6,052 nucleotides of DNA, taken from IMG/VR virus record IMGVR_UViG_2651869755_000005; one strand, 5' to 3'. Origin of the DNA: a virus. Lineage: Duplodnaviria > Heunggongvirae > Uroviricota > Caudoviricetes. The notes beneath the pieces are model-generated. The model did no database searches and had not been told where the DNA came from. It was given only the letters and a program-made list of their open reading frames with translations. Both the position numbers and the translations under genes were made by a program. This document shows positions 1,920 to 4,990 of the stretch, in pieces. Position 1 is the first letter of the stretch. Each line of letters opens with the position of its first letter.

Positions 1920-2261
1920 ATGGATTATTCACAGTTAAGTGATTTTGAAATTAACAGAATGGTAGGAGACATAATTTTTAAAGGCCTTTGGGCAAGTAAA
2001 CCGGAAACATCAGGGAATAACACCAACAAATGGTATTACGGAAATGCTGATACAACTTTTGAGCCATTAAATCATTTGCCTGACTACTGCAATGATCCGA
2101 GCGCTTCATGGCCGATTATTGAGAAATACAGGATTTCTATCTTAGACCAGTTAACTGAATGGTGTGTGGATGCAAAAGGCGTAAGCCCAATATTTGATAC
2201 CAGACCTCTCCGCGCCGCCATGATTGTCTTTCTCCTGATGCAGGAGGCCAATAATGCTTAG
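1920..2261 (+). CDS. Hypothetical nin-region protein, 113 aa, function unknown
   Basis: Long ORF in the same orientation; ATG 1920 preceded by GAGGAA SD at 1908..1913, 2 nt after the ninE stop. No motif I recognise ([24 protein letters not shown]...[13 protein letters not shown]...). An in-frame alternative start exists at 1914. Confidence 0.7.
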
Positions 2262-2448
2262 CCCATCTCAATCCCTTCAATACCTGAAAGAAAGCATAGA
2301 GCGGGCTTCAATGTGCACAGAGTGGATTCTATCTAGGTTTAGCGCATACAGAAGATTGCCGGTAAAGGGCATGCCAAGCAAGTCGATGCTGCATATGCAA
2401 AAGAATGCGCGCTGGAAGGTATGGCGAGAACACAGGTTATGTGGCTAA
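2254..2448 (+). CDS. Hypothetical small protein, 64 aa; N-terminus possibly NinF-like; 3' part overlaps an out-of-frame ybcO-like remnant
   Basis: ATG 2254 preceded by a strong SD (CAGGAGG, 2241..2247) and overlapping the upstream stop by 8 nt. The basic C-terminal third lies over sequence that in another frame encodes a YbcO-like C-terminus, so the 3' end may be fortuitous. The NinF resemblance of [10 protein letters not shown]... is a weak recollection. Confidence 0.5.
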
Positions 2449-2471
2449 AAGAGGGGGTTATTAAGGCGTGA
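2343..2471 (+). pseudogene. ybcO: 3' remnant of a ybcO-like (DUF1364 nuclease-like) gene lacking its 5' two-thirds
   Basis: Frame beginning after stop 2340..2342 reads ...[29 protein letters not shown], matching the C-terminus of DLP12 YbcO as I recall it. Its stop (2469..2471) overlaps the rusA GTG start, as in DLP12. No N-terminal Cys-rich YbcO portion is present upstream. Confidence 0.45.
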
Positions 2472-2830
2472 ATACCTACAGCATCACATTACCCTGGCCT
2501 CCGAGCAATAATCGCTATTACCGCCATAATCGCGGGCGCACGCACGTCAGCGCAGAGGGGCAGGCATACCGCGATAACGTCGCCCGAATCATTAAAAACG
2601 CAATGCTGGATATCGGCCTGGCTATGCCTGTGAAAATCCGCATTGAGTGCCACATGCCGGATCGCCGTCGCCGTGACCTGGATAATCTGCAAAAAGCCGC
2701 TTTTGACGCACTCACTAAAGCAGGTTTCTGGCTGGATGATGCTCAGGTCGTTGATTACCGCGTTGTGAAGATGCCTGTTACCAAAGGTGGGAGGCTGGAA
2801 CTGACCATCACCGAAATGGGGAATGAATGA
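2468..2830 (+). CDS. rusA: RusA Holliday-junction resolvase, 120 aa
   Basis: [120 protein letters not shown] matches E. coli DLP12 RusA as I recall it; GTG start at 2468 with GAGGGGG SD upstream. Confidence 0.92.
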
Positions 2831-2967
2831 TGTTTGAGTTTAATATGGCAGAACTTCTTCGCCACCGCTGGGGGCGTCTGCGCTTATATCGTTTCCCCGG
2901 TTCTGTTTTGACCGATTACCGAATACTGAAGAATTACGCCAAAACCCTGACAGGAACAGGAGTATGA
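2827..2967 (+). CDS. ylcG: YlcG-like small protein, 46 aa (not in the ORF track because under 60 aa)
   Basis: Manual translation from ATG 2827 (overlapping the rusA stop): [46 protein letters not shown], stop 2965..2967; matches DLP12 YlcG as I recall it and sits in the conserved position between rusA and Q. Confidence 0.7.
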
Positions 2968-3052
2968 AGTCAGAGATAACAATCAACTAATACTGTTTTG
3001 TTGATTTTTGCTTGTAATTGGCGTTCTGGTCTGATTTTTGTGGAGTAAGTTG

Positions 3053-3436
3053 ATGCGTGATATTCAGATGGTTCTTGAGCGTTGGGGTGCGTGGGCGGCT
3101 AATAATCATGAAGATGTGACCTGGTCGTCCATTGCCGCCGGTTTTAAGGGATTAATTCCTTCAAAAGTAAAATCTCGCCCGCAATGTTGTGACGATGACG
3201 CGATGATCATTTGCGGGTGCATGGCCCGTCTGAAAAAGAACAACAGCGATTTACACGATTTATTAGTAGATTATTATGTATGTGGTATGACATTCATGTC
3301 ACTGGCAAGTAAGCATTGCTGCTCGGATGGTTATATCGGGAAAAGGTTACAGAAGGCTGAGGGCATAATTGAAGGGATGTTAATGGCATTAGATATCCGG
3401 TTAGATATGGATATCGTTGCTAATAATTCTAATTGA
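3053..3436 (+). CDS. quuD: Q-family late-gene antiterminator (QuuD-like), 127 aa
   Basis: [31 protein letters not shown]...[16 protein letters not shown]... matches DLP12 QuuD in length and sequence as I recall it; ATG 3053 with GGAG SD at 3042..3045. Track start 3038 (TTG) rejected. Confidence 0.88.
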
Positions 3437-3454
3437 TATGCAATTGTTTACTAA

Positions 3455-3486
3455 AAGTTATTAAAAATGGGGCGTGGAAACGCCCC
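3455..3486 (-). terminator. Candidate rho-independent terminator on the - strand (likely nmpC terminator)
   Basis: Stem GGGGCG (3469..3474) / CGCCCC (3481..3486) with loop TGGAAA; on the - strand the hairpin is followed by ATTTTTAATAACTT (complement of 3455..3468). Confidence 0.5.
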
Positions 3487-3573
3487 CAAAATAAAGGGTA
3501 ATATATAACAGAAGGTTTATATAGTAAGAAGCAAGGTAGTGCTTCTAAAGGAAGTGGCTTGAGGGCTCCACTT

Positions 3574-3613
3574 ATATGTTGCGGAGGCAAAGCCTCCCGC
3601 AACATATCTTTTT
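3574..3613 (+). terminator. Strong rho-independent terminator on the + strand downstream of quuD
   Basis: About 14-bp stem ATATGTTGCGGAGG / CCTCCCGCAACATAT (one bulged C), loop CAAAG, followed by CTTTTT (3608..3613). The - strand side lacks a T-tract, so it is + strand specific. Confidence 0.6.
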
Positions 3614-3624
3614 CGTAAGTCAGA

Positions 3625-4707
3625 TTAGAACTGATAAACCAGACCTACAGCGACGATGTCGTCGGTATCAATACCAGCTGTTTTGGTAAACTTACTATCG
3701 TCAATTAAGTTGATTTTGTAATCAACAAAAGTAGACATGTTTTTATTAAAGTAGTAAGTAGCACCGACATCGACATACTTGACTAAGTCTCGGTCACCAT
3801 GAACACCAAGGTCTTTACCTTTTGACTGAAGGTAAGCAACAGATGGGCGCAGACCGAAGTCAAACTGATATTGTGCTACTGCTTCAAAGTTTTGTGCTTT
3901 GTTTGCAATATGGTTATTACCAAAAACGGTCATATTCTGAGTTTCAGAATATGTGGTAGCCAGATAGATATTGTTCGCATCATATTTCAGGCCTGCAGCC
4001 CATACTTCCGCATTTTTGCCGGAGGCATTGAATTTGCTCTTACCATAGGCGACCTGACCGTCAGTGCGATCTGATTTAGCATAGGTTGCACCCACGCCGA
4101 ATCCTTCATACTCATAAGTAGTGGAGAAACCGAAACCATCACCATTGGCTTCAGTTACGTCAGTGCGGTCATTTTTACCCTGATACTGAGCAGCAAAGTT
4201 CAGGCCATCGACCAGACCAAAGAAGTCGTTGTTACGATAAGTTGCAACACCAGTAGTGCGACCAGTCATGAACACATCTGTTTGGGTCCAGGTATCACCA
4301 CCGAATTCTGGCAGAACGTCAGTCCACGCACCGATGTCGTATGCTACACCGTAGTTACGGCCGTAATCGATGGAGCCGTAATCACCAAATTTCAGGCCTG
4401 CAAATGCAAGACGGGTTTTGTCTTTGGAAGAACCTTGAGATTCAGCACGGTTGCCTTTGAATTCATATTCCCACTGACCGAAACCAGTCAGTTGATCGTT
4501 GATTTGGGTTTCACCTTTGAAGCCAAGACGGGCATAAGTAGTATCACCATCATCTGCATCATTAGAGGAGAAGTAGTGCTTGGCATTAACTTTCCCGTAT
4601 AGATCCAGCTTGTTACTGTCTTTATTATAAATTTCAGCTGCCTGAGCAGACATCGCCATCAGTACTGATGCAGCTACAGCAGAAATTGCCACTGTTAATT
4701 TTTTCAT
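3625..4707 (-). CDS. nmpC: Outer-membrane general porin of the OmpC/OmpF/PhoE family (NmpC-like), apparently intact, with signal peptide
   Basis: Signal peptide [23 protein letters not shown] then [16 protein letters not shown]...; C-terminal ...VGLVYQF with terminal Phe typical of beta-barrel OMPs. Start ATG (complement of 4705..4707) chosen over the track's upstream Met (4767) because of the signal peptide and an AAGGG SD. Position and orientation between quuD and essD match DLP12 nmpC. Confidence 0.9.
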
Positions 4708-4990
4708 TGTACGCCCTTTTTTTGAACTATTATTAAAAAATGATGTCACTGCGCGATAAATATTCATCTAATCAATGTGATTATTTCAAGATGTAAGTTT
4801 TAGTTTCTCATTTAATTTGTGAAGTAGATCTCTATTTTTATCTGAACCTTTTCTATCTAATCCTATTCATGGCTCTTGTCTGAACAAAAATAAATCTATT
4901 AGCTAATTTATATTAATGGCACTTATTTATAAGTGCTCTATAATTCTTTAGCTTAATTTAAACAAACTAAAAATAACATCGGAAATTATT
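4708..4990 (-). promoter_or_regulatory. AT-rich upstream/5' leader region of the porin gene (promoter not mapped)
   Basis: Long AT-rich non-coding stretch upstream of the porin start, containing an 18-bp inverted repeat (4919..4936) and several TCTAT/ATCTA repeats; porin genes usually carry long regulated leaders. No -35/-10 pair is assigned with confidence. Confidence 0.4.
4919..4936. repeat. Perfect inverted repeat GCACTTAT-TT-ATAAGTGC (8-bp arms, 2-bp spacer)
   Basis: Read directly from the sequence; arms are exact reverse complements. Candidate dimeric regulator operator, about 215 bp upstream of the porin start codon. Confidence 0.5.

Follow-up and report, generated by a model that had tools for sequence, protein, structure and literature searches.

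In the DLP12 prophage of Escherichia coli K-12 the Holliday-junction resolvase gene rusA is found in the order ninE-ybcO-rusA (ybcO-rusA, b0549-b0550), and phage 82 carries the pair orf96-rus. The DUF1364 domain of YbcO has been classed as a His-Me finger domain, often located beside RusA and Q (PMC5714182). In phage P22 ninF directly follows ninX, with the ATG of ninF overlapping the stop codon of ninX, and the NinF proteins of P22 and lambda (PF05810) contain a Cys-rich core of 25 residues (P22 residues 20-44). Mosaic joints in lambdoid phages are formed via illegitimate or relaxed homologous recombination (Martinsohn et al. 2008, PMC2327257; De Paepe et al. 2014, PMC3945230). They show an abrupt switch in identity, connect blocks from different phages, spread through homologous flanks and occur in viable carriers; usually they lie at gene borders.

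The locus described here has the last 29 codons of ybcO in common with K-12 DLP12 and phage 82, as well as the TGA/GTG overlap with rusA and, further downstream, the order ylcG-quuD-porin-essD-rrrD. Compared with K-12 DLP12, however, YbcO residues 1-67 are missing, and upstream ninX together with a truncated ninF (ninF') takes the place of ninE. The similarity to P22 comprises the first 21 codons of ninF, its position directly after ninX and the ATG/stop overlap, whereas the Cys-rich core is replaced by unrelated sequence. The joint resembles other lambdoid mosaic boundaries in the four respects given above, but it is placed inside two genes and destroys both of them. The phages AU6Stx1 and SH2026Stx1 as well as about 250 EHEC genomes carry the same filler segment (88% identical over 2312-2388), attached to a decayed ninF at the identical point. 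There, in contrast, the pseudogene has a lambda-type ninF head mutated in the start and third codons, and beyond 2388 it is a moron that follows, not ybcO-rusA.

The window (the whole stretch of 6,052 nucleotides that was analyzed) represents the part of a DLP12-like lambdoid prophage that extends from the early-right/nin region to lysis. It comprises the end of an IS3-family element (1-248), the 3' end of P, ren, ninB, a gene for an N6-adenine methyltransferase, ninE, ninX, an ORF of 64 codons (referred to as the 64-aa ORF), rusA, ylcG, quuD, an ompC/nmpC-type porin gene on the minus strand, essD and rrrD. For the coordinates of the features discussed see Table 1. The whole window was contiguous in none of the complete E. 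coli genomes searched. At its left end (248/249) the terminal inverted repeat of the IS3-family (IS629-like) element (...CCCGGGGCGGTTCA) directly adjoins the C-terminal codons of P, which looks like the outcome of an IS-adjacent deletion. In a comparison with the closest complete genome (NZ_CM128543.1), the window lacks 1,373 bp, namely the greater part of P and a portion of O. The porin gene between quuD and essD (3625-4707, PGAP coordinates) is intact and encodes 360 residues; its K-12 equivalent, nmpC, is split by IS5.

Table 1. Features of the junction region (window coordinates) and left partners joined to the TA at 2363-2364 (locus identifiers).
Feature	Position or locus	Strand	Basis
ninX, P22-type, intact	1920..2261	+	Pfam PF10765, E 7e-17; tblastn with P22 NinX, E 6e-39; PGAP: NinX family protein
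ninF 5' remnant, codons 1-21, P22-type allele	2254..2316	+	tblastn with P22 NinF; DNA identity to P22
Chimeric 64-aa ORF: NinF residues 1-21, filler, ybcO out of frame	2254..2448	+	Pfam, polymorphism, database variants
72-bp filler between the ninF and ybcO remnants	2317..2388	+	local alignment; Stx1 phage copy
ybcO (DUF1364, His-Me finger nuclease) 3' remnant, codons 68-96 and TGA, pseudogene	2382..2471	+	tblastn, 3g27, PF07102, PGAP
GAGGGGG, possible rusA Shine-Dalgarno sequence, inside the ybcO remnant	2451..2457	+	read from the sequence; conserved in K-12
rusA, Holliday-junction resolvase, intact, GTG start	2468..2830	+	Pfam PF05866, E 7e-23; PGAP: rusA
Left partner: lambda P codon 33	L008/L009
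Left partner: P codon 47	L213
Left partner: cro-like gene, codon 61	L010/L011
Left partner: site beside Ea22-like pseudogene	L013, strain AST198 at att-lambda
Left partner: second Ea22/exo-side site	L023
Left partner: site near cIII	L076

According to the original prediction, the frame whose stop codon overlaps the start of rusA encodes the C-terminus of YbcO, lacks the Cys-rich N-terminal region and was joined to a different module inside ybcO. A tblastn search of the window with K-12 YbcO indeed aligned residues 68-96 to 2382-2468 with 27 of 29 residues identical (E = 2.9e-15, or 2.4e-12 once scaled to a 5-Mb search space). This match is far beyond chance, and the peptide reads as it had been quoted. 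It also matches residues 67-96 of the YbcO structure (PDB-entry 3g27, E = 7e-13). Against the Pfam profile PF07102 the remnant covers only positions 62-92 of 92 with 17.7 bits (gathering cut-off 29.9 bits), while K-12 YbcO as a control reaches 144.8 bits over positions 2-92. In the DNA alignment, near-identity to K-12 ybcO-rusA starts abruptly at about 2382 and runs on into rusA. The overlap of the remnant's TGA with the GTG of rusA (GCGTGA) is identical in K-12. No significant tblastn match to YbcO residues 1-67, the Cys-rich, His-Me finger part of the protein, was obtained anywhere in the window in any frame. The remnant has no start codon, and translation of 2331-2471 showed that two TAG codons (2334-2336 and 2340-2342) interrupt its frame on the upstream side, just where the prediction had placed the stops.

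The extent of the remnant had been predicted as 2343-2471. This assignment holds for 2382-2471, but the segment 2343-2381 is merely open in the same frame and does not belong to ybcO: apart from two to three residues in Klebsiella and Enterobacter phages, the residues preceding VDAAY were matched by no DUF1364 gene in a tblastn search of 50,697 phage records. PGAP describes exactly 2382-2471 as 'DUF1364 domain-containing protein, incomplete, missing N-terminus'. The remnant is thus already known as a DUF1364 pseudogene through routine NCBI annotation.

On the other side of the joint, P22 NinF residues 1-21 align to the start of the 64-aa ORF with 17 of 21 residues identical (81%, E = 2.8e-8). 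The P22 ninX-ninF DNA is 94% identical to the window up to 2316, and the similarity fades between about 2316 and 2323. The N-terminus of the 64-aa ORF is therefore derived from ninF, an origin that the original prediction had put forward for comparison. The Cys-rich NinF core (C..C...C..CC) is absent from the ORF, which matched no Pfam family up to E = 1; for P22 NinF as a control PF05810 was recovered at residues 20-44 (E = 2e-13). The last approximately 20 residues are encoded by ybcO DNA in the wrong frame. The same C-terminal tail is present on frameshifted full-length YbcO proteins (P0017-P0020), in agreement with what had been predicted for this end of the ORF. The mosaic junction as such is real and enters ybcO at codon 68; it consists, however, of three modules instead of the two that had been assumed, because a filler of 72 bp is located between the ninF and ybcO remnants.

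The local alignment of the filler with the rest of ninF, with the 5' end of ninG and with ybcO scored no better than that of shuffled sequence. Its interpretation as decayed ninF or as a divergent DUF1364 allele is thus unsupported. A distant-mode blastn search against phages and E. coli genomes returned only copies of the same segment, and neither tblastn with the peptide of the ybcO frame nor a protein search with the 64-aa ORF led to a source. The filler accompanies a ninF head in the Stx1 phages and a ybcO tail in the window. The Stx1 phage copy diverges after the equivalent of 2388 and continues into the moron, unrelated DNA with a gene of 590 codons on the opposite strand; the crossover between filler and ybcO is located within approximately 2382-2390. 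Since the Stx1 phages carry ninF' and the filler without ybcO, the joint between ninF' and the filler is probably older than the one between the filler and ybcO. In the Stx1 phages (in AU6Stx1 at 2453-2577 and 2956-4728 of locus L006) and in the approximately 250 EHEC genomes, the lambda-type ninF head ahead of the filler is mutated from GTG to GTA at the start codon and from CAA to TAA at the third codon. The opposite-strand gene of the moron has no annotated function.

Based on these comparisons we regard the region, with high confidence, as a fossil recombination scar in which P22-like ninE-ninX-ninF' plus 72 bp were fused into codon 68 of ybcO. One ancestral, non-homologous joining would have brought this segment into a DLP12/phage-82-like ybcO-rusA-ylcG-Q block, removing the zinc-ribbon core of NinF as well as the whole catalytic part of YbcO and leaving a tail of 29 ybcO codons that still abuts rusA. 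By accident, the joining would also have created the 64-aa open frame, which runs from the ninF start through the filler into ybcO DNA out of frame. Either one or two recombination events may have been involved. Both remnants are probably non-functional as proteins. The ybcO tail was probably kept for the ribosome-binding region of rusA and because there was no selection for its removal, and the recombinant block would afterwards have been passed on both vertically and through normal homologous exchange between lambdoid phages and prophages.

More than 150 loci with this rusA allele display only two upstream architectures and their deletion derivatives. About 77 loci have the order ninE-ybcO(1-96)-rusA, and about 65 have ninX-ninF(1-21)-filler-ybcO(68-96)-rusA, to which nine deletion derivatives have to be added. 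In all of the approximately 75 remnant-bearing loci the remnant starts at YbcO residue 68, which indicates that the junction arose once and then spread. Similarity ends abruptly on both sides of this single, shared breakpoint, and the flanks belong to different phage lineages, as expected for a lambdoid mosaic junction. The recombinant block was detected in 568 of 5,426 complete E. coli genomes (at least 80% coverage of a 1900-2900 query), including Nissle 1917, UTI89, ATCC 25922 and APEC O1. The junction is also present in 27 phage records corresponding to 21 distinct isolated phages, among them mEp332, ev207 and PhiR11_1. Its occurrence in so many genomes and isolated phages implies that the loss of YbcO and NinF is tolerated; both proteins are dispensable for viable lambdoid phages. 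The finding itself is a scar of ordinary lambdoid mosaicism, one more gene-destroying joint in the dispensable nin region. A literature search for ybcO/ninF junctions returned nothing specific. A metagenome scaffold (L213, 1178-1465) shows ybcO codons 1-60 connected to the C-terminus of lambda O across a run of N; we discarded this joint as a scaffolding artefact.

The 64-aa ORF could also be seen as a real, functional chimeric gene, i.e. a new NinF-like small protein born by fusion. Its length is well kept, with 13 of 14 alleles (63 of 64 copies, IMG/VR) encoding the full 64 residues and the remaining allele an in-frame expansion to 70 residues, and the overlap of its ATG with the ninX stop codon would allow translational coupling. 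Some RefSeq phage records (NC_049949.1, ev207; NC_049953.1, ev099) even label it 'protein ninF' and leave the ybcO remnant unannotated. As the Pfam core of NinF has been lost, this label is misleading, and PGAP calls no gene for the ORF in E. coli genomes. The 14 alleles differ at 13 polymorphic sites in 2254-2471. Within this small sample the polymorphisms amount to 10 nonsynonymous and 2 synonymous ones in the 64-aa frame (one of the latter in the stop codon) and to 5 nonsynonymous and 1 synonymous in the ybcO frame, so that neither frame looks constrained. The lack of nonsense mutations in the ORF is uninformative with only 13 SNPs. Moreover, frameshifted and truncated variants are present in the protein database (P0001-P0010), and in deletion derivatives the N-terminal 36 residues are replaced by fragments of P or Cro or by non-coding DNA. 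Given these variants and the missing Pfam family, we consider a functional gene quite improbable; the ORF is most likely a by-product of the joining. Homologues that stay in frame through the region formally exist in many phages, an observation which the original prediction had named as speaking against a ybcO remnant. They leave that reading unrefuted, because all of them represent one recombinant allele (at least 97% DNA identity) without purifying selection. The 70-residue version (locus L064) results from an 18-bp tandem duplication at the equivalent of approximately 2268-2285, by which SLQ is repeated.

Two further readings concern the ybcO tail. In one of them it is a full-length ybcO broken by a frameshift or a sequencing error, and frameshifted full-length alleles do exist elsewhere (P0017-P0020). 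The DNA upstream of the remnant, however, is ninX/ninF and not ybcO, residues 1-67 are missing in every frame of the window, and the structure is identical in hundreds of independent assemblies. The alignment with K-12 DNA and the tblastn result refute this reading, to which we assign practically no weight. In the other, the tail acts as a cis element for the expression of rusA-ylcG-Q, providing the ribosome-binding site and possibly upstream signals, and is not neutral debris. A Shine-Dalgarno-like GAGGGGG lies within the remnant and is likely the ribosome-binding site of rusA; no other role of the tail would seem plausible. Everything rightwards from 2364 is retained in seven of the nine deletion derivatives, and the other two break in the filler (2340-2341 and 2367-2371); breaks closer to rusA occur in only two loci (2453/2454). 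Positions 2410-2427 of the remnant show 100% conservation, but other parts of it are polymorphic, and a search of 2200-2470 for promoter-like or terminator-like sites gave none. A regulatory or RNA role of the region was rejected for the same reason, together with the absence of an Rfam family and of meaningful repeats in our searches. A cis-acting tail is conceivable, though we would not favor it; it would add to the scar explanation and not compete with it.

Inside the filler, the TA dinucleotide at 2363-2364 (CCGG-TA-AAGGG; CCGG-TA-AAGGGCATGCC) has served repeatedly as a deletion breakpoint. In different defective prophages, six or more unrelated sequences have been joined on the left to the rusA-side DNA that begins at 2364, always via the shared TA (Table 1); the right-hand breakpoint is fixed, whereas the left-hand one varies. 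The evidence consists of proteins P0011-P0015 and of loci from NCBI, Logan, IMG/VR and one complete genome, and also includes locus L214. Several of the partner sites are themselves used in other combinations. The site at P codon 33 is also joined to the 3' end of ninX (L022). The second Ea22/exo-side site is found with two further right partners (L172, L089), and two further left partners are attached to its opposite flank (L066 and K-12 DLP12). A TA in lambda O acts as the right site in L089; in L204 it forms the left site and connects to the filler at 2340-2341. In K-12 DLP12 (L002, approximately 73-75 and 376-378) both boundaries of pseudogenes, xisD|exoD and exoD|peaD, are TA joints. The wider class of TA junctions is represented by L022, L066, L089, L172, L204, L028, L036, L018 and L153.

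An all-against-all comparison of the loci, counted manually, yielded TA in the shared bases of 20 out of approximately 33 non-IS deletion junctions; IS-related junctions in the same data carry a different signature. The 27 parental TA sites have the symmetric consensus C-S-G-N-TA-N-C-S-G. GG-TA or TA-CC is present in 11 of these 27 sites as compared with an expected fraction of about 12% (binomial p ~2e-4), a value to be read with the sites not being fully independent and the sample having this locus as its starting point. At -1 and +2 the bases invariably stem from different parents, and the exchange therefore takes place inside the TA. A metagenome scan added no partners with a non-G base at -2. 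A general scan contributed the TA junction at 2340-2341 (lambda O to filler) and an ordinary 5-nt microhomology junction (L190).

We tentatively propose, as a possibility we hold to be less probable than its opposite, that the TA at 2363-2364 belongs to a discrete set of re-used breakpoints at which a sequence-specific break-and-rejoin process deletes, and sometimes inverts, lambdoid prophage DNA. The pattern would fit a dimeric nuclease whose cuts leave TA overhangs of 2 nt that are religated afterwards; a recombinase acting on a TA core would fit as well. Joining by random microhomology is disfavored because the sites are re-used. Gyrase, with its 4-bp stagger (PMC6379681), was rejected as the cause, since a crossover inside the TA argues against the exchange of 4-nt overhangs. 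IS-mediated adjacent deletion was rejected as well: no IS end is located at the joints, and junctions of the IS type differ. The lambda nin5 deletion is not of the TA type but is flanked by a 10-nt direct repeat. An insertion at the 2363 site was found in none of 85 loci. As to the responsible enzyme, YbcO itself, Ea31/Ea59, a serine recombinase or a restriction system are pure guesses. If the proposal is true, sequence-specific cutting or recombination is one of the forces behind the decay of prophages in E. coli, beyond random illegitimate recombination and IS elements, and the TA junctions provide defined sites for testing such an activity. A literature search for TA-type prophage deletions or sequence-specific break-and-rejoin in lambdoid prophages returned nothing specific.

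A more complex rearrangement was observed in locus L094 (approximately 3219-3224 and 4513-4514). It combines an inversion with a deletion, and its breakpoints coincide with TA sites or directly adjoin them; one of the joints is offset by 1 nt. The breakpoints include the P-gene site that is used in the exoD|peaD joint of K-12.
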